From Euprymna scolopes (lineage: Eukaryota), in assembly GCA_053919585.1 (NCBI GenBank), contig CM132799.1: 64,000 bases of DNA; one strand, given 5' to 3'. The position numbers were made by a program, and so were the translations under genes. The notes under the pieces were generated by a model. The model was not told where the DNA came from and made no database searches. It saw only the letters and a list, made by a program, of their open reading frames with translations. This document shows positions 9,686 to 49,597 of this stretch, in pieces. Each line of letters begins with the position of its first letter. Positions within the stretch are counted from its first letter, which is position 1.

Positions 9686-10926
9686 GTTATAAAATATATA
9701 TGGCAATTAAGCTACACAGAATGTTTCGCGTTTCATCGTAGATACCGAGAGTAAAGAAGGCCGATGCGCATGACAGCGTGACGTCATTATCAGATCCAAT
9801 TATAGGTATATGGTCTAGGCTATTAACAGCAGTTTTGNNNNNNNNNNNNNNNNNNNNNNNNNNNNNNNNNNNNNNNNNNNNNNNNNNNNNNNNNNNNNNN
9901 NNNNNNNNNNNNNNNNNNNNNNNNNNNNNNNNNNNNNNNNNNNNNNNNNNNNNNNNNNNNNNNNNNNGGTTAAATAAACAGCAGCTATACAAACTGACAC
10001 GCATGTGCATCACAAAGTGGTTAGACGATACGGCCTGGATACGCAAACATGCATCACAGTTTTTGTAGCTCATCCACTTCTAAGGTTAAAATAAGTAGGG
10101 AGTTGAGCAACCATATGTTTCTTCGCGTTACATTTAAATTTCTGCAATTTAGAATAGTCAAAAGAGCTGGCAGGGAAATAAAAAAGTTTCGCAGATTGTG
10201 TGAATGACCTATTAAAGTGAAAACCTACTGGAAAGAAATTAAATAACTATAGCTTACAAATGTAGATGTTTTATTTTCAAAATGTGTCACTCGCCCTTCC
10301 ATATTTTTCGTTCAAACAAAATATAAGTTTCGACGTTTCTCTTTATACGTCAAATATTTCACGTGCATTCAAGCATGATTTGATAAATTACAGTGTTTGC
10401 ATATTAAAAACGGACCGAGTGCTATATGCCAAATTAGTATTAGAATATGTTCAATTTATATTAATTTTTCATTGAAAGTAATCACTTTTGATCCGTACTT
10501 ATCCATAACCGTGCATCGAACGGATGCAATATCACTTAATTCGTTCCACTTAATAAAAATAAAGATGCATAGAAAATTTCAGCGAGATCGCACCAGTAGT
10601 TTTCGATAAATTCTCCAGAGTAAAATTGGTATAATACTTGCTAATTCCTTTTCATCCTTTATCATTACTACGCATCGAATGGATACAATAGATGTTAGTT
10701 TGCTGCAACTTATTATAACAAAGTTTATACCACATATCAGCAAGATCAAACAAATAGTTTTCGTAAAAAATGTGTAACGGACATAGTCAGACAGACTAAG
10801 AAAAATATAACATAGATTTCTTTGATTTTATGTGATGTTGACTATTCATATATATAATATGCATACAATCTCAGTTATGACAATTGTATTCATGTTTGAA
10901 TTACATTTCTGTATATATTATAGATA

Positions 10927-11006
10927 TTAAGTTGGTGCAAAAATAATGACGGTTTTTGATGTGAAGTTGAACGTCAAACAACAACATTGGTTTTGCACCA
11001 ATCTAA
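10927..11006. mobile_element. 80-bp mariner-derived MITE (MADE1-like), flanked by TA
   Basis: ta|ttaagttggtgcaaaa...ttttgcaccaatctaa|ta: imperfect palindrome with Hsmar1/cecropia-type terminal repeats and a TA duplication. Confidence 0.75.
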
Positions 11007-11579
11007 TAGTCTCACGTTGTAGCGATTGTCGTATTGGTCTTCCTTTCAATTTCATATTAAATTATGAGTTGTAATTTCTCGATTTTCCATAAAGAAGTTG
11101 AAATACAAACAGTTATGGCATACTTTACTAATACGTTCACACTGATGCATTTAATGGATTAACTGTGTGAATTAAAATAGTAATTGCAAATAAAACACAT
11201 CAATCATATTGACATGCTATTAAGAACGGCAAACTGAACTGCAATAAAAATGTAGTTGCTTTAATTAATTAAACGTTTACAAGCGTTGATCACGTCCTGA
11301 GATGAGGAGACATTAATAAAGAATGGCGAATAACCCCTGAAGATATTTAGTGCCAAGTCGTATGCCTGTCAGTTTTGGATGATTGATATTTTAGTCATTT
11401 TTAGAACTAGTTTTACATTTGTCAAATGAGTATAAAGTTATTGTTTATTACATTTAATTTCTATTTTTACAACTATTAATTTATGAACATCGAACAGTTT
11501 AGAAACGCTAAAATTTGCTTAAATATTGGTTGCAAATCGGTAATCTCTTCCTCCACGCCCCAGAACTATCCGACTACAA

Positions 11580-14236: not shown

Positions 14237-15170
14237 GTCACCACTTATCAAGGCCCAGAAGCCACTCGGAGATAAGGGTTATTGTATGTACAGTACGTTA
14301 GTGTTGGAAATTTGATAAAGTGTCTTACTAAAGGGGGCGGTTCATCAGGAACCTGTTTACATTGGACTTGAAGACATCCAGGTTGTAGTACAGGTGGGAA
14401 ACAGGCAACCGGAACAGAGTTCCACAGGCGTGCACTTCTAAGAAAGAAGCTCTGTTCATGGAATCCACGTCTTGATTTTGGCAACGATAAGGAGTGGGGA
14501 AAATTTTTGACACTGGTTTCAGCTAGGCGGGTGTTTATTGTGAGAGATTGGCGAGGGGGGTCAGAGATTTGAGTTCAGACGAGCACCTGCCATGGTAGTA
14601 ATGATAGAACAAATACAAACTCGCTACTTCTCTTCTGTGAGAAAAAGGTTGCAGGGAAGAGAAAAGGGCATCACCCACTAGGCCACGAAGCCTATTTTGT
14701 ACTCTGTCAAAGCAAGATAGCCTGTTTTTAGCAGCTCCTGCCCAGATGTGGCAGCAGTACTCCATGCTTGGACGTACTTTGCTTTTATACAGATAGAAAA
14801 TTGCATCAGGGGTGAGATATCTTCTGGAACGGTAGAAGGATCCCATCATGTTTCCAGCGAGCTTGGCAACTGACTTGATGTACGTGTTCAATTTCAGGTC
14901 AGGAGTAAAGCTTATCAATCCATGGAACTTCCCCTAGACGAGAGCCGCCCATATCAATTGATGCCAGATGGGGATCAGAGCGTTGATGAAGTAAAGATAG
15001 GAGCTTGGGTTTAGATGGATTAAAAGTAACCAGTCAACTCCTCCCCGCGCTCAAGATCAGAGGAGAAAGAATTAGAGAGAACTTTGTCATTTACGGTCTT
15101 TGATGTGTTACCATAGATGGTCGTGTCATCAGCATAGATGTCAACGAATGATTTAAGTATGTGTTTTGGG
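14237..15170 (-). mobile_element. 5'-truncated CR1/L2-type LINE (RT C-terminus and 3' UTR)
   Basis: IYADDTT at about 15120-15141; ORF 14535..14918 has YKSKVRPSMEYCCHIWAG...DRVQ...SHRREVASL; 3' tail shared with 56928-57822. Confidence 0.9.
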
Positions 15171-19319: not shown

Positions 19320-19831
19320 AGGAAGTGCGAACAAAAACAAGGCCGATAGCCATTAGTCGCGTGCTCTCGTGTAATGAATGAATGCCATGAAATTCTTAAA
19401 GATAAACTAAAATGACCGAAAAATAGGCTGAAATGACTTAAATAAATAAAAAGTAAATGACTTATAATGACTTTAATGAACTTAAGGATGAATTGATGAC
19501 CTTAAGAATGACTTGAATGCTTAAAAAATAACTGAAATCCTTCAAAAACAACTTGAATGATCTGGAGAATGACTTGAATGGCTTTGAGACTGACTGGTTG
19601 TAAAGTGGGTGATCATTTTACATTAAATTCATACAAAAAAGTGATCCCCCACTGTATATCACAAAAATTATTTGATTTAGGGAATTTGAAACGTTATTTT
19701 CGTATTCAGGAACCCCGAAAACCAATAAATAGTGTTATAATAAACATAAAACGAAATAAAAATTACGTGTGTTAAGGACCGACCGACCGACCGACCGACC
19801 GACTTATAGAGTTACTTGCACACGATTAAAA
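19320..19831. mobile_element. Helentron/HINE-like non-autonomous element with internal aatgactt repeats and (GACC)n
   Basis: aacaaggcc...ttagtcgcgtgc near the left end; right end (gacc)n gacttatagagttacttgcacacgattaaaa matches 28690-28752. Confidence 0.5.
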
Positions 19832-19934
19832 CACTATTCTGTGGTATGCATTTAAAAAAATGTCAGTCGGTCGGCCGGTCCGTAACACATTTACTTATTA
19901 GTTACAAACAATGCAGCATCGGTTAAGAACAGAT

Positions 19935-22900
19935 GGTATTTATTTGCTCCCCCACCGAGCAAATTAGGCACAAGGCCAATTTTTAATGTGAGGAGTGAAG
20001 GGAGGGGGAAGGGAAAAGGGGACCAGCTCCCGAGAGGTGGGAAATAGGAGCTGGTTAAAGGTCAGGCATGTGGGGTTGCCCCCACATCTGGTCTTTGCTA
20101 GTCATAGCTAGTCATAGCTTGCAGTATCTGCCGGAACAGATGGTATTTATTTGCTCCCCCACCGAGCAAATAAGGCACAAGGCCAATTTTTAATGTGAGG
20201 AGTGAAGGGAGGGGGAAGGAAAAAAGGGGACCAGCTCTCGAGAGGTGGGAAATGGGAGTTGGTTAAAGATCAGGTGTGTGGGGTTGCCCCCACATCTGGT
20301 CTTTGCTTGCAGTATCTGCCGGAACAGATGGTATTTATTTGCTCCCCCACCGAGCAAATTAGGCACAAGGCCAATTTTTAATGTGAGGAGTGAAGGGAGG
20401 GGGAAGGGAAAAAGGGGACCAGCTCCCGAGAGGTGGGAAATGGGAGCTGGTTAAAGGTCAGGCATGTGGGGTTGCCCCCACATCTGGTCTTTGCTAGTCA
20501 AAGCTTGCAGTATCTGCCGGAACAGATGGTATTTATTTGCTCCCCCACCGAGCAAATTGGGCACAAGGCCGATTTTTAATGTGAGGAGTGAAGGGGAAAT
20601 GGGGACCAACTCCCCGGGGAGTAGGGGAGCTGGATAGTGACAATTGGTATGAAGGGTGGCCCGTACATTGACCAAGGTCTTATATGTGGGGTCGTCCCCA
20701 CATATGGTCTTTGCTTGCAGTATCTGCCGGAACAGATGGTATTTATTTGCTCCCCCACCGAGCAAATTAGGCACAAGGCCGATTTTTAATGTGAGGAGTG
20801 AAGGGGGGGGAGGGAAAAAGGGGACCAGCTCCCGAGAGGTGGGAAATGGGCGCTGGTTAATGGTCAGGCATGTGGGGTTGCCCCCACATCTGGTCTTTGC
20901 TAGTCATAGCTTGCAGCATCTGCCGGAACAGATGGTATTTATTTGCTCCCCCACCGAGCAAATTAGGCACAAGGCCGATTTTTAATGTGAGGAGTGAAGG
21001 GAGGGGGAAGGGGAAAAGGGACCAGCTCCCGAGGGGTGGGAAATGGGAGCTGGTTAAAGGTCAGGCATGTGGGGTTGCCCCCACATCTGGTCTTTGCTAG
21101 TCATAGCTAGTCATAGCTTGCAGTATCTGCCGGAACAGATGGTATTTATTTGCTCCCCCACCGAGCAAATTAGGCACAAGGCCGATTTTTAATGTGAGGA
21201 GTGAAGGGAGGGGGAAGGGAAAAGGGGCCCAGCTCCCGAGAGGTGGGAAATAGGAGCTGGTTAAAGGTCAGGCATGTGGGGTTGCCCCCACATCTGGTCT
21301 TTGCTAGTCATAGCTAGTCATAGCTAGTCATAGCTTGCAGTATCTGCCGGAACAGATGGTATTTATTTGCTCCCCCACCGAGCAAATTAGGCACAAGGCC
21401 AATTTTTAATGTGAGGAGTGAAGGGAGGGGGAAGGAAAAAAGGGGACCAGCTCTCGAGAGGTGGGAAATGGGAGTTGGTTAAAGATCAGGTGTGTGGGGT
21501 TGCCCCCACATCTGGTCTTTGCTTGCAGTATCTGCCGGAACAGATGGTATTTATTTGCTCCCCCACCGAGCAAATTAGGCACAAGGCCAATTTTTAATGT
21601 GAGGACTGAAGGGAGGGGGAAGGGAAAAAGGGGACCAGCTCCCGAGAGGTGGGAAATGGGAGCTGGTTAAAGGTCAGGCATGTGGGGTTGCCCCCACATC
21701 TGGTCTTTGCTAGTCAAAGCTTGCAGTATCTGCCGGAACAGATGGTATTTATTTGCTCCCCCACCGAGCAAATTGGGCACAAGGCCGATTTTTAATGTGA
21801 GGAGTGAAGGGGAAATGGGGACCAACTCCCCGGGGAGTAGGGGAGCTGGATAGTGACAATTGGTATGAAGGGTGGCCCGTACATTGACCAAGGTCTTATA
21901 TGTGGGGTCGTCCCCACATATGGTCTTTGCTTGCAGTATCTGCCGGAACAGATGGTATTTATTTGCTCCCCCACCGAGCAAATTAGGCACAAGGCCGATT
22001 TTTAATGTGAGGAGTGAAGGGGGGGAGGGAAAAAGGGGACCAGCTCCCGAGAGGTGGGAAATGGGCGCTGGTTAATGGTCAGGCATGTGGGGTTGCCCCC
22101 ACATCTGGTCTTTGCTAGTCATAGCTTGCAGTATCTGCCGGAACAGATGGTATTTATTTGCTCCCCCACCGAGCAAATTAGGCACAAGGCCAATTTTTAA
22201 TGTGAGGAGTGAAGGGAGGGGGAAGGAAAAAAGGGGACCAGCTCTCGAGAGGTGGGAAATGGGAGTTGGTTAAAGATCAGGTGTGTGGGGTTGCCCCCAC
22301 ATCTGGTCTTTGCTTGCAGTATCTGCCGGAACAGATGGTATTTATTTGCTCCCCCACCGAGCAAATTAGGCACAAGGCCAATTTTTAATGTGAGGAGTGA
22401 AGGGAGGGGGAAGGGAAAAAGGGGACCAGCTCCCGAGAGGTGGGAAATGGGAGCTGGTTAAAGGTCAGGCATGTGGGGTTGCCCCCACATCTGGTCTTTG
22501 CTAGTCAAAGCTTGCAGTATCTGCCGGAACAGATGGTATTTATTTGCTCCCCCACCGAGCAAATTGGGCACAAGGCCGATTTTTAATGTTTGGAGTGAAG
22601 GGGAAATGGGGACCAACTCCCCGGGGAGTAGGGGAGCTGGATAGTGACAATTGGTATGAAGGGTGGCCCGTACATTGACCAAGGTCTTATATGTGGGGTC
22701 GTCCCCACATATGGTCTTTGCTTGCAGTATCTGCCGGAACAGATGGTATTTATTTGCTCCCCCACCGAGCAAATTAGGCACAAGGCCGATTTTTAATGTG
22801 AGGAGTGAAGGGGGGGGGAAAAGGGGACCAGCTCCCGAGAGGTGGGAAATGGGCGCTGGTTAATGGTCAGGCATGTGGGGTTGCCCCCACATCTGGTCTT

Positions 22901-25900
22901 TGCTAGTCATATCTTGCAGCATCTGCCGGAACAGATGGTATTTATTTGCTCCCCCACCGAGCAAATTAGGCACAAGGCCGATTTTTAATGTGAGGAGTGA
23001 AGGGAGGGGGAAGGGGAAAAGGGACCAGCTCCCGAGGGGTGGGAAATGGGAGCTGGTTAAAGATCAGGCATGTGGGGTTGCCCCCACATCTGGTCTTTGC
23101 TAGTCATAGCTAGTCATAGCTTGCAGTATCTGCCGGAACAGATGGTATTTATTTGCTCCCCCACCGAGCAAATTAGGCACAAGGCCGATTTTTAATGTAA
23201 GGAGTGAAGGGAGGGGGAAGGGAAAAGGGGACCAGCTCCCGAGAGGTGGGAAATAGGAGCTGGTTAAAGGTCAGGCATGTGGGGTTGCCCCCACATCTGG
23301 TCTTTGCTAGTCATAGCTAGTCATAGCTTGCAGTATCTGCCGGAACAGATGGTATTTGTTTGCTCCCCCACCGAGCAAATTAGGCACAAGGCCAATTTTT
23401 AATGTGAGGAGTGAAGGGAGGGGGAAGGAAAAAAGGGGACCAGCTCTCGAGAGGTGGGAAATGGGAGTTGGTTAAAGATCAGGTGTGTGGGGTTGCCCCC
23501 ACATCTGGTCTTTGCTTGCAGTATCTGCCGGAACAGATGGTATTTATTTGCTCCCCCACCGAGCAAATTAGGCACAAGGCCAATTTTTAATGTGAGGAGT
23601 GAAGGGAGGGGGAAGGGAAAAAGGGGACCAGCTCCCGAGAGGTGGGAAATGGGAGCTGGTTAAAGGTCAGGCATGTGGGGTTGCCCCCACATCTGGTCTT
23701 TTCTAGTCAAAGCTTGCAGTATCTTCCGGAACAGATGGTATTTATTTGCTCCCCCACCGAGCAAATTGGGCACAAGGCCGATTTTTAATGTGAGGAGTGA
23801 AGGGGAAATGGGGACCAACTCCCCGGGGAGTAGGGGAGCTTGATAGTGACAATTGGTATGAAGGGTGGCCCGTACATTGACCAAGGTCTTATATGTGGGG
23901 TCGTCCCCACATATGGTCTTTGCTTGCAGTATCTGCCGGAACAGATGGTATTTATTTGCTCCCCCACCGAGCAAATTAGGCACAAGGCCGATTTTTAATG
24001 TGAGGATAAGGGGGGGGGGAGGGAAAAAGGGGACCAGCTCCCGAGAGGTGGGAAATCGGCGCTGGTTAATGGTCAGGCATGTGGGGTTGCCCCCACATCT
24101 GGTCTTTGCTAGTCATAGCTTGCAGCATCTGCCGGAACAGATGGTATTTATTTGCTCCCCCACCGAGCAAATTAGGCACAAGGCCGATTTTTAATGTGAG
24201 GAGTGAAGGGAGGGGGAAGGGGAAAAGGGACCAGCTCCCGAGGGGTGGGAAATGGGAGCTGGTTAAAGGTCAGGCATGTGGGGTTGCCCCCACATCTGGT
24301 CTTTGCTAGTCATAGCTAGTCATAGCTTGCAGTATCTGCCGGAACAGATGGTATTTATTTGCTCCCCCACCGAGCAAATTAGGCACAAGGCACATTTTTA
24401 ATGTGAGGAGTAAAGGGAGGGGGAGGGAAAAAGGGGACCAGCTCCCGAGAGGTGGGAAATGGGAGCTGGTTTAAGGTTAGGTATGTGGGGTTGCCCCCAC
24501 ATCTGGTTTTTGCTAGTCATAGCTTGCAGTATCTGCCGGAACAGATACTACACTTTGATGGTATTTATTTGCTCCCCCACCGAGCAAATTAGGCACAAGG
24601 CCGATTTTTAATGTGAGGAGTGAAGGGAGGGGGAAGGGAAAAAGGGGACCAGCTCCCGAGAGGTGGGAAATGGGAGCTGGTTAATGGTCAGGCATGTGGG
24701 GTTGCCCCCACATCTGGTCTTTGCTAGTCATAGCTAGTCATAGCTTGCAGTATCTGCCTGAACAGATGGTATTTATTTGCTCCCCCACCGAGCAAATTAG
24801 GCACAAGGCCGATTTTTAATGTGAGGAGTGAAGGGAGGGGGGAAGGGAAAAAGGGGACCAGCTCCCGAGAGGTGGGAAATGGGAGCTGGTTAATGGTAAG
24901 GCATGTGGGGTTGCCCCCACATCTGGTCTTTGCTAGTAATAGCTAGTCCTAGCTTGCAGTATCTGCCGGGACAGATACTACACTTTGATGGTATTTATTT
25001 GCTCCCCCACCGAGCAAATTAGGCACAAGGCCGATTTTTAATGTGAGGAGTGAAGGGAGGGGGAAGGGAAAAAGGGGACCAGCTCCCGAGAGGTGGGAAA
25101 TGGGAGCTGGTTAATGGTCAGGCATGTGGGGTTGCCCCCACATCTGGTCTTTGCTAGTAATAGCTAGTCCTAGCTTGCAGTATCTGCCGGGACAGATACT
25201 ACACTTTGATGGTATTTATTTGCTCCCCCACCGAGCAAATTAGGCACAAGGCCGATTTTTAATGTGAGGAGTGAAGGGAGGGGGAAGGGAAAAAGGGGAC
25301 CAGCTCCCGAGAGGTGGGAAATGGGAGCTGGTTAATGGTCAGGCATGTGGGGTTGCCCCCACATCTGGTCTTTGCTAGTCATAGCTAGTCATAGCTTGCA
25401 GTATCTGCCTGAGCAGATGGTATTTATTTGCTCCCCCACTGAGCAAATTAGGCACAAGGCCGATTTTAATGTGAGGTAAAAACCAGCTCCCCTAAAAGTA
25501 GGCAAAAAAGGGTACTCTGGTTACCAAAAATAATAATTTTCCCAGTATAGAGGGTTTCCCCTCCATTGACTGGTACAAATTATCTTAAGTGCAGCATCTG
25601 CCTGAACAGATGGTATTTATTTGCTCCCCCACCGAGCAAATTAGGCACAAAGCCAATTTTTAATGTGAGGAGTGAAGGGAGGGGGAAGGGAAAAAGGGAC
25701 CAGCTCCCGAGAGGTGGGAAATGGGAGCTGGTTAATGGTCAGGCATGTGGGGTTGCCCCCACATCTGGTCTTTGCTAGTCATAGCTAGTCATAGCTTGCA
25801 GCATCTGCCTGAACAGATGGTATTTATTTGCTCCCCCACTTAGCAAATTAGGCACAAGGCCGTTTTTAATGTGAGGTAAAAACCAGCTCCCCTAAAAGTA

Positions 25901-27547
25901 GGCAAAAAGGGGGCACTCTGGTTACCAAAAATAATAATTGTCCCAGTATAGAGGGTTTCCCCTCCATTGACTGGTACAAATTATCTTAAGTGCAGTATCT
26001 GCCGGAACAGATGGTGTTTATTTGCTCCCCCACTGAGCAAATTAGGCACAAGGCCGTTTTTAATGTGAGGTAAAAACCAGCTCCCCTAAAATGGGTCACT
26101 CTGGTTACCAAAAATAATAATTGTCCCAGTATAGAGGGTTTCCCCTCCATTGACTGGTACAAATTATCTTAAGTGCAGTATCTGCCGGAACAGATGGTAT
26201 TTATTTGCTCCCCCACTGAGCAAATTAGGCACAAGGCCATTTTTAATGTGAGGTAAAAACCAGTTCCCCTAAAAGTAGGCAAAAAGGGGGCACTCTGGTT
26301 TCCAAAAATAATAATTGTCCCAGTATAGAGGGTTTCCCCTCCATTGACTGGTACAAATTATCTTAAGTGCAGTATCTGCCGGAACAGATGGTGTTTATTT
26401 GCTCCCCCACTGAGCAAATTAGGCACAAGGCCGTTTTTAATGTGAGGTAAAAACCAGCTCCCCTAAAAGGGTCACTCTGGTTACCAAAAATAATAATTGT
26501 CCCAGTATAGAGGGTTTCCCCTCCATTGACTGGTACAAATTATCTTAAGTGCAGTATCTGCCGGAACAGATGGTATTTATTTGCTCCCCCACTGAGCAAA
26601 TTAGGCACAAGGCCATTTTTAATGTGAGGTAAAAACCAGCTCCCCTAAAAGTAGGCAAAAAGGGGGCACTCTGGTTACCAAAAATAATAATTGTCCCAGT
26701 ATAGAGGGTTTCCCCTCCATTGACTGGTACAAATTATCTTAAGTGCAGCATCTGCCGGAACAGATGGTATTTATTTGCTCCCCCACTGAGCAAATTAGGC
26801 ACAAGGCCGTTTTTAATGTGAGGTTAAAACCAGCTCCCCTAAAAGTAGGCAAAAAGGGGGCACTCTGGTTACCAAAAATAATAATTGTCCCAGTATAGAG
26901 GGCTTCCCCTATACTGACCGGTACAAATTATCTTAAGTGTAGTATCTGCCGGAACAGATGGTATTTATTTGCTCCCCCACCGAGCAAATTAGGCACAAGG
27001 CCGATTTTTAATGTGAGGAGTGAAGGGAGGGGGAAGGGAAAAAGGGGACCAGCTCCCGAGAGGTGGGAAATGGGAGCTGGTTAATGGTCAGGCATGTGGG
27101 GTTGCCCCCACATCTGGTCTTTGCTAGTCATAGCTGCAGTATCTGCCGGAAGAGATGGTATTTATTTGCTCCCCCACTGAGCAAATTAGGCACAAGGCCG
27201 TTTTTAATGTGAGGTAAAAACCAGCTCCCCTAAAAGGGGTCACTCTGGTTACCAAAAATAATAATTGTCCCAGTATAGAGGGTTTCCCCTCCATTGACTG
27301 GTACAAATTATCTTAAGTGCAGTATCTGCCGGAACAGATAGTATTTATTTGCTCCCCCACCAAGCAAATTAGGCACAAGGCCGATTTTTAATGTGAGGAG
27401 TGAAGGGAGGGGGAAGGGAAAAAGGGGACCAGCTCCCGAGAGGTGGGAAATGGGAGCTGGTTAAAATTCAGGCATGTGGGGTTGCCCCCACATCTGGTCT
27501 TTGCTAGTCATAGCTAGTCATAGCTTGCAGTATCTGCCGGAACAGAT
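19935..27547 (-). repeat. Head-to-tail array of 38 structured non-coding units (26 type A, 4 type B, 8 type C) inserted in a U2 snRNA 5' fragment; putative non-autonomous site-specific retroelement
   Basis: Units start (plus strand) ggtatttatttgctcccccac(c/t)gagcaaattaggcacaaggcc...aatgtgagg and end gcagtatctgccggaacagat. B units at 20528, 21744, 22535, 23737; C units at 25419, 25819, 26013, 26196, 26390, 26572, 26766, 27157. The flanks rejoin to aagaacagat|actacactttgatcttagcc, the reverse complement of the U2 5' region. Confidence 0.9.
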
Positions 27548-27576
27548 ACTACACTTTGATCTTAGCCATGTGGCCA
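27540..27576 (-). pseudogene. U2 snRNA 5' fragment (stem I and branch-point recognition region)
   Basis: Minus strand ggccacatggctaagatcaaagtgtagtatctgttc versus the metazoan U2 consensus GGCCTTTTGGCTAAGATCAA(A)GTGTAGTATCTGTTC; the remainder (atctgttctta) is displaced to 19924-19934 by the array. Confidence 0.9.
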
Positions 27577-27799
27577 ACGAAAAGTTACATTTTGGACAAG
27601 TTTCAGAAAAGTCTAATTGATAGGTAAAACATTTATGGAGGAAACAGTGTGATTATTTGCAATTTTGGTACATTTTTACCCCCTTATGAGCCTCTTGGAA
27701 TGCTGAATATCAGTTACAATGGACAAACTATGCAGTTTTACACCGTAACACATGTATATTTGACTTCAGCACCATGGGAGAGAACTATATAGATATACA

Positions 27800-27880
27800 T
27801 TTTTTTTTACACAGTGATCACCACTTATCAAGGCCCGGAAGCCACTCAGGAATAAGGGTTATTGCAAGTACAAGTACAAA
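27800..27880 (-). mobile_element. Very short 3' tail of the CR1/L2-type LINE
   Basis: T-run then caccacttatcaaggcccggaagccactcaggaataagggttattgca, matching about 14240-14285 and 56950-56985. Confidence 0.8.
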
Positions 27881-28249
27881 CGGTGCAGTTTCACACCTTA
27901 ACACATGTATTTTTACATTCAGCAACATGCGGAACCACTATATAGACATATCAAGTTTTTGTTGAGAAATATGAGAAACGCGCCAGAAGAAAGGGCGTTT
28001 TCAGTACAAAACATCCCAGTGGGATGCAAACCAGACGTTTACCAGGATCACTCATACTGAATTTATATTAAGTACAATGCCCTCCACATTTTGGGCTAGT
28101 TTCAGAAAAATCTAATGGATGGATCAAATGTCACGGGGCAAAAAGTGTCATTTTGGGCCATTTTTTATCGCTTTTGAGATGGAGTGCTTTGCATGCGACT
28201 AAAAATGCCTTAGCATGGAAGGGTTTTCCCTTCCATTGCCAAGGAACAG

Positions 28250-28678
28250 TTACAAACGTAAGTACAGCATCTATTAAGAACAGATACTACACTTTGGTAT
28301 TTATTTGCTCCCCCACTGAGCAAATTAGGCACAACGCCGATTTTTAAAGTGAGGAGTGAAGGGGAAATGGGGACCAACTCCTCGGGGAGTAGGGAAGGGG
28401 GCTAGTGACAATTAGTAATAAGGGTTGCCCCTACATTGGCCAAGGTCTTATCTGTGGGGTCGCCCCCACATAGGGTCTTTGCTTGCAGTATCTGCCCCGG
28501 CAGATACTAAACTTTGATCTTAGCTATGTGGCCAAGGAAACTTTACAAACATAAATACAGCATGTAGTAAGACAGATACTCAATTTGATCTTGGCCAAAA
28601 GGCCAAGACAAGCTTACAAAGCTAAGAACAGCATCTATTAACAACAGACCTTTGATCTTAACCAAAAAGGCCAAGCAC
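28250..28678 (-). repeat. Three tandem ~65-70 bp repeats each containing a U2 5' fragment; the first is interrupted by a solo unit
   Basis: Unit acaaa...cagcatctattaagaacagatactacactttgatcttagccaaaaggccaag; copies at about 28250-28295 plus 28501-28540, 28545-28612 and 28615-28678. Confidence 0.85.
28296..28505 (-). mobile_element. Solo type-B unit inserted in a U2 fragment
   Basis: Same ends as array units but more diverged; flanked by cagatactacacttt (left) and cagatactaaacttt (right). Confidence 0.85.
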
Positions 28679-30414
28679 AAAAGTGTTATAGACAGACCGA
28701 CCGACCAACGGACCGACGGAGTGACTTATAGAGTCGCTTGCACGCGAGTAAAAAGGAAATCAGGAAAAAAAAAAACACCACGTGCTCGGAGGGAGACCAA
28801 AATCTACGTCGAAGAAGAAAATGGATATGTGGTCGGAGAAGAAACGTGTTCGGTGAGCTAGATGGACGAAAGAAGCAAGATACTTTTAAAGTGATGTCAA
28901 GACGGGAAAGTGTGATAAATACTTTGTTAAAACAGAAAAAATGTGGACTCGGATTTTCATTTATTTCTTCACTTTTTTATTTTTATTTATTACTAAAGAC
29001 AAGTGTAACTTCATGTAATGTTACATAATACTTATTTTGGTAGACGTGACCAGGCATTTACTCATAAAAGGGACAATATAAAGAAAGAAGAAAGAAAAAC
29101 AAACGTTTTTACGGAAAAATGCAACTGCAAAAGAAATTCGCCCGAGAGTGCAAAACTTTGAAATAAAAAGAATAGGATATTGCACAAGTTGGTGAGTCAC
29201 TTGTTTGCTTTTTTCTGCTAATTTTCGAATTTTTCTTTGTCTTTTCAGTAATATTTACTTGTTTTGGGGAGACGTTGGTTATGCATAAGGAATATTGTTT
29301 CATACTCATTTTAACATAACAAATAGCTTGTATTGTTTTAGAGACGAATTTACAACTCATTTTGACTGGAACAAATTTTTGAAGTTTGTTTTTGGACTTG
29401 TTTTTTAAACTCCTGTTTTATTGTTATGAATTACTAAAGTTTAAAATTAAAAGAAAAATGGTGGATATTTTGCAAAATTGGAATAAATGTTTAAACAATT
29501 ATAACGTGTGAAAAGCAAATATAAGTACTAAAGTAAGTCCTAAGAAGTTACAATAAGTGTAACTTTATTTCTATAAAGAGTAGTAATTATATTTTAAGCT
29601 TATGGGTTGTTTATAATTTACTGTTAATCCTGGCATTGTGAAAAATGATTAAATATCAACATGTATTTATTTTTATTCATTTATTTTTATTTATTTATTT
29701 TTTTACAAAGAACCTGAAAAAATGCACGTTCTTTTTAGCTGAGCAACTTACAAATACTTTTATTTTATTTGCGAACTTTTCACCGGGTCTTGTGCTTTTG
29801 TTTGTCGTTATTTTACTGTTTGTCGATTTAGATAAATACATAAGACTGGAATATTAAAACCTAAGTAGTTTTAATTTTGAAATAAAGCAAGACTGCATGA
29901 CGTCAGATAGGACACTTGACATGAAGGAAATTATTTTTTAACTTAAACTCTTTATGACGATAAGGGGCTACAGCTTGCATTGTCGTTATTGTAGAAATAT
30001 AAATGCCTACTATATATTTGGGATGCGCGCAGTCCTCGATTATAGAAATAGAAGATGTAAACAGCGACAATTTTTTCCTGTAGAATTCGGATAGCGTATC
30101 AAATTTCCAGAGTATGTACGTGAACTTATCATCGGAAGTGAGTCATTACACTTTTGTTGATCGGTTCACAAACAAAGCAGCTAAGAGAATAAGGGAATAA
30201 ATAGTAGTGAATGAGTATACAGTGTTCGAATTAGGTGCTTCATGATAACGTTAAACTTTACTGTGACACGAAAAAGAGAAAATGCAATAAGTGTTGTATA
30301 ATGTTGATTAAAACGGACGTCTTTTCAATTATTAAATCATTCCTCTCTGATAAGTTTATTAGAGTATTCGTTCATAGGCAAAAATAAGAAGCTCACAGTA
30401 TTAGTGCTAGAGTT

Positions 30415-41619: not shown

Positions 41620-42790
41620 ATTGAAAATATTGCAAATATTTATAAATTTATGTCTAATTACTAGCATTAAATTATCATAAAAAATTACAAATATTTATAA
41701 ATTAATGTCTTATTACTAGTATTAAATTATCATAAAAATTGCAAATATTTCTAATTTATGTCTAATTACTAGTATTAAGTTATCATAAAAAATTGCAAAT
41801 ATTTCTAATTTATGTCTAATTACTAGTATTAAATCATCATAAAAAATTGCAAATATTTCTAATTTATGTCTAATTACTAGTATTAAATCATCATAAAAAA
41901 GTGCAAATATTTCTAATTTATGTCTAATTACTAGTATTAAATCATCATAAAAAAGTGCAAATATTTCTAATTTATGTCTAATTACTAGTATTAAATCATC
42001 ATAAAAAATTGCAAATATTTCTAATTTATGTCTAATTACTAGTATTAAATCATCATAAAAAAGTGCAAATATTTCTAATTTATGTCTAATTACTAGTATT
42101 AAATCATCATAAAAAATTGCAAATATTTCTAATTTATGTCTAATTACTAGTATTAAATCATCATAAAAAATTGCAAATATTTCTAATTTATGTCTAATTA
42201 CTAGTATTAAATCATCATAAAAAAGTGCAAATATTTCTAATTTATGTCTAATTACTAGTATTAAATCATCATAAAAAAGTGCAAATATTTCTAATTTATG
42301 TCTAATTACTAGTATTAAATCATCATAAAAAAGTGCAAATATTTCTAATTTATGTCTAATTACTAGTATTAAATCATCATAAAAAAGTGCAAATATTTCT
42401 AATTTATGTCTAATTACTAGTATTAAATCATCATAAAAAATTGCAAATATTTCTAATTTATGTCTAATTACTAGTATTAAATCATCATAAAAAAGTGCAA
42501 ATATTTCTAATTTATGTCTAATTACTAGTATTAAATCATCATAAAAAAGTGCAAATATTTATAAATTCATGTCTAATTATTAGTGTTAAATTATCATAAA
42601 AAATGCAAATATTTATAAATGGAAGTCTTATTACTAGTATTAAGTTATCATAAAAAATCGCAAATATGTATAAATGGATGTCTAATTACTAGTATTAAAC
42701 TATCACAAAAAATGCAAATATTTATAAATTCATGTCTAATTACTAGTATTAAATCATAAAAAATTGCAAATATTTATAAATTGTGTAAAA
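41620..42790. repeat. 54-bp AT-rich minisatellite, about 21 copies
   Basis: Unit aaaaaa(g/t)tgcaaatatttctaatttatgtctaattactagtattaaatcatcat; homogeneous centre and diverged edges. Confidence 0.95.
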
Positions 42791-45558: not shown

Positions 45559-47614
45559 TACAAAACTTAATCATTTCAAAGAATTCCAATAAAATAATAT
45601 TCAACAATCAATCTGGCATAAAGTACTCGTTCTAAGTCAACATTTCTTTGTTTTTATCAAACTTTTTGTAATTCTAGTTTGTTGTATATTTTTCTTACTT
45701 CCGATTTAACCGCTGTTAACTATTTAACACGTTTGCTTATAAATCTCTATTTATTTACTATTTAATAATTTTAATATATTTCTTTGTTAATCATTTCGTA
45801 TTTTCTGCTTTAATTAAAAGACAAAGTTATGGAAAATTTGAATTAATTAGATTAGATTTTTCTGAGTATCAAACTTTCTGTTTTATGAGTTGAGCGTTTG
45901 AAATTTGAATTATTTTGAGTATTCGAATTATTGTGCCAATCTAAACTGTTATATAAGATCACGAGCGATGTAACGTCTGCTCGTCCTCAGATATGTCTTG
46001 TCGAATTGTGGAATATTTCGAGAATCTTGGAAGTTCGCAAAAACCTGTAGTGGATAATGTACTTGGTGACATTTAGTTGTCAGTTACATTCTTCTGAACG
46101 TTGAAGATTTAATTCCCGGTGTGAGCGACATTAAAAATACAATGGCCAATTATGTATGTTCTACCCAGTCATGGCTGACGGAACGCGAGCATGCTACCCA
46201 GCTTAGTAAAGGGTTCCATTTGAAATGTCTTGCGGATTCCAGAGCTTGATAGTTTGACCAGAAACACATGAATATGGGCGGCGGTTTGATCGGTTGAAAG
46301 GTTGTGATAAAACCACCAAGATTGAACATTAGTCCTAATTATCCAACATTAAGTCTGCATAGACTTTTTGTAACATGATCCCCGACAAATATTCTGTGAA
46401 TCAACATTCCACTCAGTCGTTTATATTTGGCGGCATAAAGAAACTAACAGCTTGCACTTAAATCTCCGATCTGGCGTTTGTATCTTCTTTATTGCTGCTA
46501 AATCTAGATGATGCGGGAGTGTTGTTATTGCGGCTGAGGATAATACAGTGCGTAAAGAAAGAGTTATTGAAAACTGTACATCCTGTAGCTATGGTGTAAT
46601 CAACAATGCCATTGGTTGTCGATTATAGCAAAACTATGAATAGATTCGCCCGATTGGACGTTTAGATATGCAAGTATGTTCAATATCTTGGATTGTTAAA
46701 TGATCTTGTGTTGCACAGTTGTTGCAAGTTACTCTTCAGCAAGGTGTAGCACCTGTTAGCTTCCATCTGATATTTTAGAGGGTTAAAATGCAGTGGACAG
46801 ATGAAGCTTCTCGGCGGTGGAGAGGGCAAATCACTTAAGGGAAGGAAACTCTAATTAAAAACGAAAGAAAACACGGAAAGAAAATGTCAATTAATGTGAT
46901 TAAGAAATCTTCTAGTGAAGGTCATACAAGCACTCGCTTACAATTTATTATCAGCCAGCACGGAAATAATAATCTTTAGAAAACTATCATGAGATTTTCA
47001 TATCAGTGCGCAATCTGGTCTAACCGGAAATAGCTTAAGATAATTCGAAATCTTTTAGCTAAGTTTTGATAATTGGTGTTATTTGGATGATTTATGATAT
47101 TTTTCTCATCTTGAATGCTAGTCTTATAAGATTTCACATTATGTGAAAATAATACAAATGCGAATTACTTAAGCCTTCTACATCATTATGGCTGATGAAA
47201 GAGGAACGAGTTATTCTGCAGATAAAATAAAGTATATAACATTATTATGTTCTAATTTTTTTAATTAAAGATTGGCAATGTATATCATTACGACTATTGT
47301 TTTCATAGTTTCGCCCGATGTAACTGATGTATCCGAATAAAAATATATGCCTACGAATATGAGGAGTTTCAGATAGCGTTGCTTAAATTAAACAAAACAA
47401 ACACACTTATTTATATTGTAGATGCTGTAACGAAAATAAAATAGCAGAATTGCACTTTATCGCGCCGGGAGTATATTATTTTTGAAGTGAGGCGGAAAAG
47501 TTACCCGAAAAAAAAAGAGGGGTCAACCCAAAATCAATATTCTAAACTAAATGTTATATTTGATTTGCACATTATGAAAAAACATTTTTATTTTGAAAAT
47601 AATTATTTTTAAAT

Positions 47615-48075
47615 ATTCAATGTTAAATCTTATTTGTAAAGTTTAAATATAATACATTAAAAAACATTCAATGTTAAATCTTATTTGTAAAGTTTAAATA
47701 TAATTAATTAAAAAACATTCAATGTTAAATCTTATTTGTAAAGTTTAAATATAATTAATTAAAAAACATTCAATGTTAAATCTTATTTGTAAAGTTTAAA
47801 TATAATTAATTAAAAAACATTCAATGTTAAATCTTATTTGTAAAGTTTAAATATAATTAATTAAAAAACATTCAATGTTAAATCTTATTTGTAAAGTTTA
47901 AATATAATTAATTAAAAAACATTCAATGTTAAATCTTATTTGTAAAGTTTAAATATAATTAATTAAAAAACATTCAATGTTAAATCTTATTTGTAAAGTT
48001 TAAATATAATTAATTAAAAAACATTCAATGTTAAATCTTATTTGTAAAGTTTAAATATAATTAATTAAAAAATAT
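47615..48075. repeat. 51-bp AT-rich minisatellite, about 9 copies
   Basis: Unit aaaaaacattcaatgttaaatcttatttgtaaagtttaaatataattaatt; near-perfect copies. Confidence 0.95.
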
Positions 48076-49597
48076 TTTTGTTACATTGTGTACCATCGAA
48101 ATAAAATTTAATAAATGTTTCCAATCTATGTATTTTTCTTCGATATGATACTTCGTTAATTTATTCAATTATTTGAACTACGGAAAAGGTTCGCTTAAGA
48201 ATCATCACTAATTTTGGGATTGTATTCCAATTTCGCTTGTATTACTCTTCGAAAATGAAAACAAAAATGGCGAGTTAAAACGCATCAATAAATTTATAAT
48301 ATTTAAATAGCATATAGATACTTCTTTAATTAATATGCACACATCAAATTTGCGAATAAAATAAGTTGCATAAAATCACAGTTGTAAGTTACACTCTTCT
48401 GGCGGTTTAAGGTCAAATCCTTAGTGCGGGCGACACTCAAAATACAATTGTCAGTTAGTTAGAACGTCTATCCAGTCATGGGTGACGGAACGTTATAATT
48501 GTTCCTCGTGAATGTAATAAAGGGTTTGGATTCGAAATAACATGCAGATTCCCGAAGTCGACAAAAAGATTTCTGATACTCATACGATACATTAGAAGGA
48601 AGTCAGATGTTACATTAACCGAAACTTTGTACAAAAGTGCAGAACTGACATATTGCTACTCATCTCCTTCCATAATACTCCTGCAAATTATGTCACTGAT
48701 AGTAACTCCTACTTCAAAGTTTGGGGTGAAAAAATTGAATAAGAAATTTTTTTTTAAATGACACTGAATATGCGAAAAGTAGTTGAAGGAAGCCAGATAG
48801 TAAGATTAATTAGCAAATAGATATGTCTACAATTAAAATTCAAATGTTAAATTTTCGAATAGAACAACAAGTTTAATACAACGTTAAGTCGATCATTTAT
48901 TTTCTGAATGTTGCTGTGCGTCGTTTCATTGGTGGAAAACAAAAGGGCACACGGTAAATTCTCGTTAATAATCAGATTGAGATCATCTGCGTTTTGATAA
49001 ACGAGATTCTCGTGCGGATTTCAATAAGACGCGACTCATTAATCTTCATTCAGCATTCGATCACAACGTGGTGTCGAACAACTAGTCGACTGGATAATAA
49101 AAATACCTCGTCCCTTGTGCCAGATGCAAGTAATTAAATGACTATATATAATTCGATTAGTACGACTTTAAGTTCAACCATTTGAAGCAGAGTTAACAGA
49201 CAAGAACAGGGGTCAAGTATAGTCAAAGAAAGAAGTGGCGGTGTGTTTTAATAAAGATGTTATTATATGTGTAACATTTTCTCTGATCTATAATAAATCT
49301 GCTTTTTAATAAGCTTGTCAAGGCTTGAAAGCCACTCGAGTATAAATGATTATGTAAGGTGGCCGGTTATATAACAATGTGATCATACTTAATGCTAGAA
49401 CTGGAATAGTGTTTGTTCATTAAGAAGATGGCTAAACAACTGACTTGTTTACATTACTCTTTAAAAAGACAGCTAGTGGTTAGTTTAAATAAAGTTGTCA
49501 TAGAAGTAAAGACTTACTATGTGGCCAACATTTTTTATCAGCTGTAAAGCACTGGGGTATACATGTCTGTTAAGTGAAACTTAATGGGCTTAGAATT

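Follow-up and report, generated by a model that had tools for sequence, protein, structure and literature searches.

Repeated landing of U2-headed retroelements in the U2-hairpin units of a probable Helentron-type transposon of Euprymna scolopes

How does a stretch of squid DNA come to hold several pieces of the 5' part of U2 small nuclear RNA (snRNA), some of them split by short repeats and others empty? The question is raised by a window of 64,000 nucleotides from Euprymna scolopes (NCBI GenBank assembly GCA_053919585.1, contig CM132799.1), the whole stretch of DNA that was analysed here, in a genome of 5.9 Gb. A preliminary description made from the letters of the window had noted four U2 5' fragments without the U2 3' half and Sm site, and had proposed that a DNA transposon carrying captured U2 sequence spreads decoy targets for a retroelement. 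All four fragments were found in place, on the minus strand, and comparison with the genome's own U2 bore out the absence of the 3' half and the Sm site, as the units track U2 over nucleotides (nt) ~9-48 and then diverge. Rfam matched U2 at 27422-27586 (E-value 0.0015) and 28470-28615 (E-value 0.0044), both below the gathering score because the match is confined to the 5' quarter. With a probability of roughly 0.75, we conclude that a non-coding, likely Helentron-type transposon carries U2-hairpin units, likely captured from the 5' ends of retroelements with U2 heads, and that L1/Tx1-type long interspersed elements (LINEs) and short interspersed elements (SINEs) have inserted into these units in most copies.

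The transposon, called the host below, is multicopy, a point on which the preliminary description had made its proposal depend: exact matches to a 30-mer of its unit D number at least 1,477, which is a floor for copy number. A first look with the query 28545-28760 gave 2,170 candidates, with all 40 scored copies near the full query length, and the query 27581-28249 gave 3,508, of which 40 were scored with a best segment of 89-93%. Each copy is non-coding and carries two to five fixed units, each composed of U2 nt ~9-48 and an antisense arm. In order to measure occupancy, 70 of the first 75 listed unit D matches were read in genome order, leaving out two inverted pairs and one already-seen copy, which was filled. 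An earlier host sample, drawn with the query 28545-28760, was not used for this purpose since its query held the empty unit C and hence selects empty copies; the short copies read from it were all empty at C. In the 70 copies, unit C was filled in 60, empty in nine and deleted in one, whereas unit D was filled in none, with one copy showing an upstream deletion. Unit D (28614-28676, minus strand) has a deletion in the branch-site-pairing stretch that is fixed across the family, and unit C (28543-28608, minus strand), the main landing site in other copies, is damaged and empty in the window by changes private to this copy. The preliminary description was thus correct that both empty fragments are damaged, but only the damage in C belongs to the window copy.

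Evidence for repeated landing came from the LINEs. A LINE piece meets host sequence in 27 of the 70 copies (24 identified by blastn and three by a 3'-end motif), every breakpoint is different, and two families are involved. These distinct breakpoints indicate independent insertions into the host, and 5'-truncated copies with their own breakpoints serve as the argument for independent insertion in the available text of PMC4494074 as well. The proposed comparison with true U2 genes was also informative. At least 1,179 exact U2 3' parts are present, 1,153 of them continuous with the 5' part; two U2 sequence variants were seen among them (L001-L030 in our locus numbering), in dispersed genes and in a 764-bp tandem array. 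Among the first 96 listed units of the array, only four were filled, the four gaps of 7-8 kb being full-length LINEs; three of these are of a family downstream of which a complete U2 sequence remains, and are hence missed by the count of continuous copies. One dispersed U2 gene holds a LINE of the family termed LINE-1. Fisher tests of host against true U2 occupancy gave p of about 1e-29, although the copies are not independent, and the safer contrast is therefore 27 independent LINE hits in 70 host copies against four filled units in 96. The claim that a DNA element spreads landing targets is upheld by these repeated hits at unit C, and the host does act as a landing pad.

The partner LINEs were traced through longer 3' ends at the same junctions as the SINEs. 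They contain two open reading frames (ORFs), and ORF2 harbors APE, RT and zf-RVT domains with human L1 ORF2p as its closest solved relative (E-value 9e-64). On the basis of the two ORFs, the APE and RT domains and the C-terminal zinc domain, these elements are best assigned to the L1/Tx1 type; none of the 120 listed homologs of the LINE protein was a named Tx1 reference. Three families were distinguished, about 70-74% alike in ORF2 DNA, and their 3' flanks start at U2 nt 27, 23 and 1. For LINE-1, a first look gave 1,469 candidate 3' ends. All 30 of the 3' ends examined abut nt 27 of a U2-type head, and a U2 head piece precedes the 5' end in 30 of 30. Scored by eye, the heads at these 30 3' ends were 18 X, five Y and two Z SINEs, two host C units met directly, three other U2-headed sequences and no true U2 gene; host sequence lay within 1.5 kb of only six. 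Most decoys are dispersed SINE heads, and the retroelements make most of their own decoys. The true U2 gene broken by LINE-1 is cut at the same place as the other LINE-1 junctions. Utopia was rejected as partner, as the endonuclease is an N-terminal APE and not a restriction-like endonuclease (RLE), and a search for true U2 broken at the Keno/Utopia site returned no exact matches. Likewise, four ORFs of the window considered as partner proteins gave no Pfam match.

SINEs with the same heads account for the remaining inserts. A 200-bp unit (window 28297-28500) gave 3,815 first-look candidates, and all 40 scored copies matched at 91-95%, the self hit aside. At unrelated sites, the U2 head lies inside the target-site duplication of 7-19 bp (e.g. 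L032, L036, L037, L041, L047, L051 and L059), so the head belongs to the element and the units are U2-headed SINEs of several subtypes. In L095, one such SINE has landed in unit A of the host, bringing its own head and showing an 11-bp duplication. Host sequence was in the right place within 1.5 kb for only two of 29 other SINE loci (L039 and L042), a count from which longer arrays could hide a few more. At the 3' end, the SINE units have no poly(A) run but a short, fixed A-rich motif. Their junctions resemble those of the LINEs: nt 27 is used by SINE and LINE-1 alike, SINE and LINE-3 share similar last letters and both join near nt 1, and one further SINE junction starts at nt 39. LINEs likely mobilize the SINEs. 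In two runs of poly(A) RNA, of which 12-13% was read, 1,282 and 1,247 reads fell on the 40-nt head only, in both orientations and mostly continuing into SINE arms; no common start of the head reads was seen in this portion. Additional U2-headed short units or tails unlike the X, Y and Z SINEs (L053, L144, L148, L164, L184 and L271) point to more families in the system. Two orientations of the loop are seen in the hairpin of the SINE head (window 28495-28510; L032, L033, L053, L096 and L107), a flip/flop arrangement that suggests inversion or template switching at the hairpin. A reading of the unit as a retrozyme was set aside, as no Rfam ribozyme family, which covers described folds only, matched in the window at E-values up to 1.

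A course of events that would account for these results begins with full-length, open-frame LINEs in true U2 genes, where they sit directly behind U2 nt 46. The U2 promoter would drive these LINEs, yielding RNA that begins with the U2 head, and the same-headed SINEs would derive from this system. As the head lies within the target-site duplication, each new copy itself becomes a target, and head-to-tail trains grow. Folding predicts pairing between the antisense arm and the U2 branch-site stretch: complete in LINE-1, the X and Y SINEs and units A and B of the host, and partial in LINE-2, LINE-3 and unit C, with weak pairing of the stretch in true U2 (z scores of -1.1 to -6.3). Such an arm would hide sequence able to disturb splicing. 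One HINE lineage may then have acquired head-plus-arm pieces, duplicated them as central repeats and dispersed them by rolling-circle copying. LINEs have struck unit C repeatedly and independently, and unit D, with part of its site lost, has escaped. The host would finally act as a sink scattered over the genome, and would additionally carry SINEs as a vehicle. In the U2 array (contig C9 in our numbering), three loci (L220, L221 and L222) have a LINE 3' end followed by complete U2 from nt 1 and a 5' end after U2 nt 1-46; insertion of this family would capture the U2 promoter, and the U2 copy left behind would be intact yet lack a promoter. The upstream head differs from the gene by a letter pair in two of the three.

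Several results weigh against this account. In the long copies, counted by eye in a sample chosen by similarity and with duplicates and the window left out, unit C was filled in 20 of 21, but intact unit A in only three of 23 and unit B in about four of 22. Site integrity is hence not sufficient for filling, and the earlier expectation that occupancy follows integrity holds for the damaged unit D against unit C and not for unit A. The loop of the first U2 hairpin is not the same in A and B as in C, so either recognition extends beyond the core or insertion favors the first good site. Four empty copies that were inspected each have one or two head changes, and the empty unit C of the window and of L110 is damaged, but at a background divergence of 4% the tie between empty C and head damage is only suggestive. 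For the SINEs, one exact junction is common to 20 of the 37 filled copies in which the C arm is visible, and this SINE is about as diverged as the host core (0.081 versus 0.075 at G/C sites and 0.021 versus 0.024 at A/T sites), so that much of the 86% occupancy of unit C may be one inherited insertion. The arms of LINE-2 and LINE-3 pair only in part, and no read joined the U2 head to a LINE-3 5' end in the portion of the two poly(A) runs covered. Among 150 scored Rep/Helicase matches from 6,421 candidates, none of the eight long candidates tested was an autonomous Helentron sharing the host ends, and the case for rolling-circle movement of the host accordingly lies in its anatomy.

A stronger version of the landing-pad interpretation holds that host U2 pieces are kept because they divert insertions from essential U2 genes or give retroelements a refuge. 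The contrast of 60 filled copies in 70 with four filled array units in 96 is in line with this, as is the single true U2 gene in which an exact pattern located LINE-1, against the 1,469 candidate 3' ends of the first look. Moreover, among 20 full-length LINE-1 copies outside U2 genes, four have the 1,170-codon ORF2 open, one of them in the host. On the other hand, U2 is not scarce, with at least 1,153 continuous genes, host sequence is near only a fifth of the LINE-1 ends examined, and unit D is fixed in a dead state. Purging and homogenization keep occupancy low in rDNA-type (ribosomal DNA) arrays, and would equally give the low occupancy of the U2 array. Both frames are open in all five LINEs read in true U2 genes (L219-L223), whereas ORF2 is open in only one of six full-length LINE-1 copies borne by the host, although the families in the two places differ. 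The safe haven for the retroelement, as earlier proposed, is not supported, given the self-made decoys, the abundance of U2 genes and this difference in open frames. We regard selection for a decoy role, and with it an adaptive decoy, as doubtful. Similarly speculative is a three-way mutualism in which the rolling-circle transposon keeps the target of the retroelements themselves, the SINE rides by DNA copying, full-length LINEs borne by the host stay active and the system has for the most part left the U2 genes, with a lower U2 load.

The common SINE junction and the matching divergence of SINE and core would also be expected if a few insertions into master copies had been multiplied by host copying without repeated targeting. 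A weak signal of co-inheritance between SINE and core (r 0.21, p 0.008, 20 copies), partly an effect of shared age, points the same way. However, the 27 LINE pieces with different breakpoints and from two families refute such hitchhiking for the LINEs, several other 3' junctions occur on the C arm, and the identical cut site is found in a true U2 gene. The shared junction and the empty sites are each present in both variants of the host core (11 and 7 copies for the junction; 7 and 2 for the empty sites), and this distribution requires at least two insertions or recombination. As a complete explanation, hitchhiking is therefore very improbable; it remains a partial explanation for the commonest SINE junction.

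The sequence following each fragment, earlier taken for a common context, is an arm antisense to the U2 piece that folds back on it (z scores of -2.5 to -4.1 for the five window pieces). In host units A and B, the arm closely matches that of the Y and Z SINEs, and the point in U2 at which all heads end is about that of the LINE 5' junction. The host would thus have taken up retroelement heads and not a piece of a U2 gene, and the direct capture from a U2 gene that had been suggested gives way to units carrying the retroelements' own head-plus-arm hairpin. That the host instead captured a fragment of a true U2 gene or a self-primed U2 retrocopy and made the arm itself, with the SINE heads later or independent, is highly unlikely in view of these arms and head ends, even though HINEs are thought able to capture host sequence (available text of PMC4067079), 3'-truncated U2 retrocopies are described as common (available text of PMC4494074) and the first stem-loop of unit C is equally close to U2 and to the SINE heads.

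The host family is likely a rolling-circle, Helentron-type DNA transposon, judged by its structural features. A short form of about 580 bp comprises T-rich ends, subterminal inverted repeats, a tetranucleotide microsatellite, units D and C, the core and a 3' stem-loop; the long form additionally contains units B and A, central repeats and inner end-like pieces. Traits of HINEs that were found include 5' and 3' subterminal inverted repeats with an inner inverted repeat (window 28740-28749 and 19355-19364, and likewise in short copies), a 3' palindrome or stem-loop near the end (19340-19351, and in most full copies), a microsatellite after the 5' repeat, central repeats and the lack of coding capacity. 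The boundaries are T-rich and the flanks unrelated among copies, as read from the copies themselves. The genome also holds many Helitron/Helentron Rep-helicase frames of 1,486-1,603 codons, some of them 99% alike, a likeness that points to recent activity of such rolling-circle families.

The window copy is a long-form HINE, non-autonomous and Helentron-type, enlarged by two retroelement insertions and running on the minus strand from about 28754 to about 19336. It is collinear with copy L114 from 28747 to about 19330 (85-92% in pieces), and its order of parts is identical in copies L092, L096, L098 and L104. The 5' end (28677-28754) contains the T run, subterminal repeat, internal inverted repeat and tetranucleotide microsatellite, and the 40 scored copies match it at 87-94%, excluding the self hit. 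Units D and C are followed by unit B (28250-28537), which is split by a single X-type SINE of about 200 bp (28297-28500). Its upstream head (28501-28537), whose 3' part likely comes from the incoming SINE, differs from the downstream half and has a loop variant like that of L032, L033 and L053; the downstream half (28250-28296) consists of a U2 piece from nt 29 and its arm (hairpin z score of -3.5). The middle of the long host (27581-28249) contains a stem-loop (28215-28237), an inner host-like start (28186-28205) and degenerate central repeats; a short repeat is inserted there (27800-27875), with two further copies in the window (14238-14296 and 56950-56992). Unit A, with its upstream head at 27540-27580 identified by U2 match and its downstream U2 piece from nt 39 and arm at 19905-19933, is split by 38 head-to-tail U2-headed SINE units of several subtypes (19934-27539; 182-221 bp each). 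The unit lengths form a higher-order repeat, recurring in blocks of four to six (188, 198, 210, 196, 207 and 207-217) in 19934-24340, and this repeating order points to enlargement of the array after insertion by DNA-level duplication. Of the fragments earlier described as occupied and intact, A and B are indeed split by inserts, but at B the U2 letters are kept in the downstream half alone; the upstream half has an altered letter and a variant hairpin loop like that of other SINE copies. All of these parts lie on the minus strand. The ends had been read as inverted microsatellite ends of HINE type, and the HINE anatomy holds. However, both the inverted microsatellite (plus strand, 19862-19888) and a second inner host-like start beside it (minus strand, 19777-19831) lie within the long host, an arrangement (19777-19888) shared by other long copies; the true 3' end lies at about 19336-19364. 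The core and this end (19336-19700, minus strand) include the subterminal repeat, the stem-loop and the T-rich boundary.

Elsewhere in the window, an 84-bp hairpin (10925-11008) with a mir-548 match under the gathering score is likely a small mariner-type miniature inverted-repeat transposable element. A weak 5S rRNA match at 60633-60743 (30.7 bits against a cut-off of 38) is possibly a 5S pseudogene or SINE head. Two AT-rich minisatellites are present at 41624-42786 (54 bp, 21.5 copies) and 47611-48076 (51 bp, 9 copies).

The component parts of this system have precedents. Tx1L in Tx1D of Xenopus is a Tx1 LINE targeting a site inside a DNA transposon, which is similar to the present case, although we know of no snRNA-derived target in it. 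SINEU-1/2/3 of crocodilians are U2-headed short retroposons, their Tx1-Mar partners cluster with Keno, and both are found in Mariner-N4_AMi (available text of PMC4494074). As here, these are short non-coding retroposons with a U1/U2-derived 5' head and a target in common with a Tx1 partner; that text likewise describes Tx1 LINEs that are sometimes U2-headed, tandem insertion, preference for a non-autonomous DNA transposon and independence argued from 5'-truncated copies. In contrast, it does not report the mariner target as U2-derived, and it describes a poly(A) tail and crocodilians only. In the squid, the carrier is a HINE, the target is the retroelements' own U2 head, the SINE has no poly(A) tail and LINEs are also found in true U2 genes. 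Keno (Tx1 clade, APE) and Utopia (RLE) are U2-specific LINEs that, like the elements here, insert in the 5' part of U2 genes; APE is shared with Keno and tandem copies with Utopia-1_NVit (available text of PMC4640811). Their 3' flank, however, starts at U2 nt 39 in that text (inferred nt 40 in the numbering of this genome), compared to nt 27, 23 and 1 for the LINEs here, and most copies here lie outside U2 genes; the SINE junction at nt 39 is one base off that start. The squid LINEs work like Keno but differ at the junction and are not classed as Keno. YURECi/YURE-2_Cis in the U2_sat of Ciona is also a U2-targeting lineage with U2-derived repeats as alternative targets, but as far as the available text of PMC4640811 describes it U2_sat is a satellite in occasional use, whereas here the U2 piece sits in a dispersed DNA transposon and its use is the rule at unit C. 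With DINE-1/HINE and Cg_HINE the host shares subterminal repeats, an inner inverted repeat, a 4-nt microsatellite, central repeats, a 3' palindrome, T-rich boundaries and non-coding character (available texts of PMC4067079 and PMC7492417). It differs from them, so far as these texts go, in that its central repeats are a retroelement target and that the long array arose from retroposition and later duplication and is not a native central repeat. The literature searched yielded no Helitron/Helentron or other DNA transposon that bears the U2 target of the retroelements themselves, and this is the part without precedent there, although Repbase, most subscription papers and supplements lay outside that search, so a crocodilian or Repbase case is possible.

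In this system, the extent to which one mobile element disperses another's target can be given in numbers. The dead unit D beside the live unit C, together with the less-used units A and B, constitutes a built-in control that maps the needs of a U2-specific endonuclease. The findings also bear on how U2-headed retroposons are transcribed, a question raised in the available text of PMC4494074; with intact LINEs placed immediately after U2 nt 46 in the arrays, promoter borrowing becomes testable. Finally, the three related LINE families, with intact frames and a different cut site each in the same gene, offer a natural series for work on site-specific insertion.

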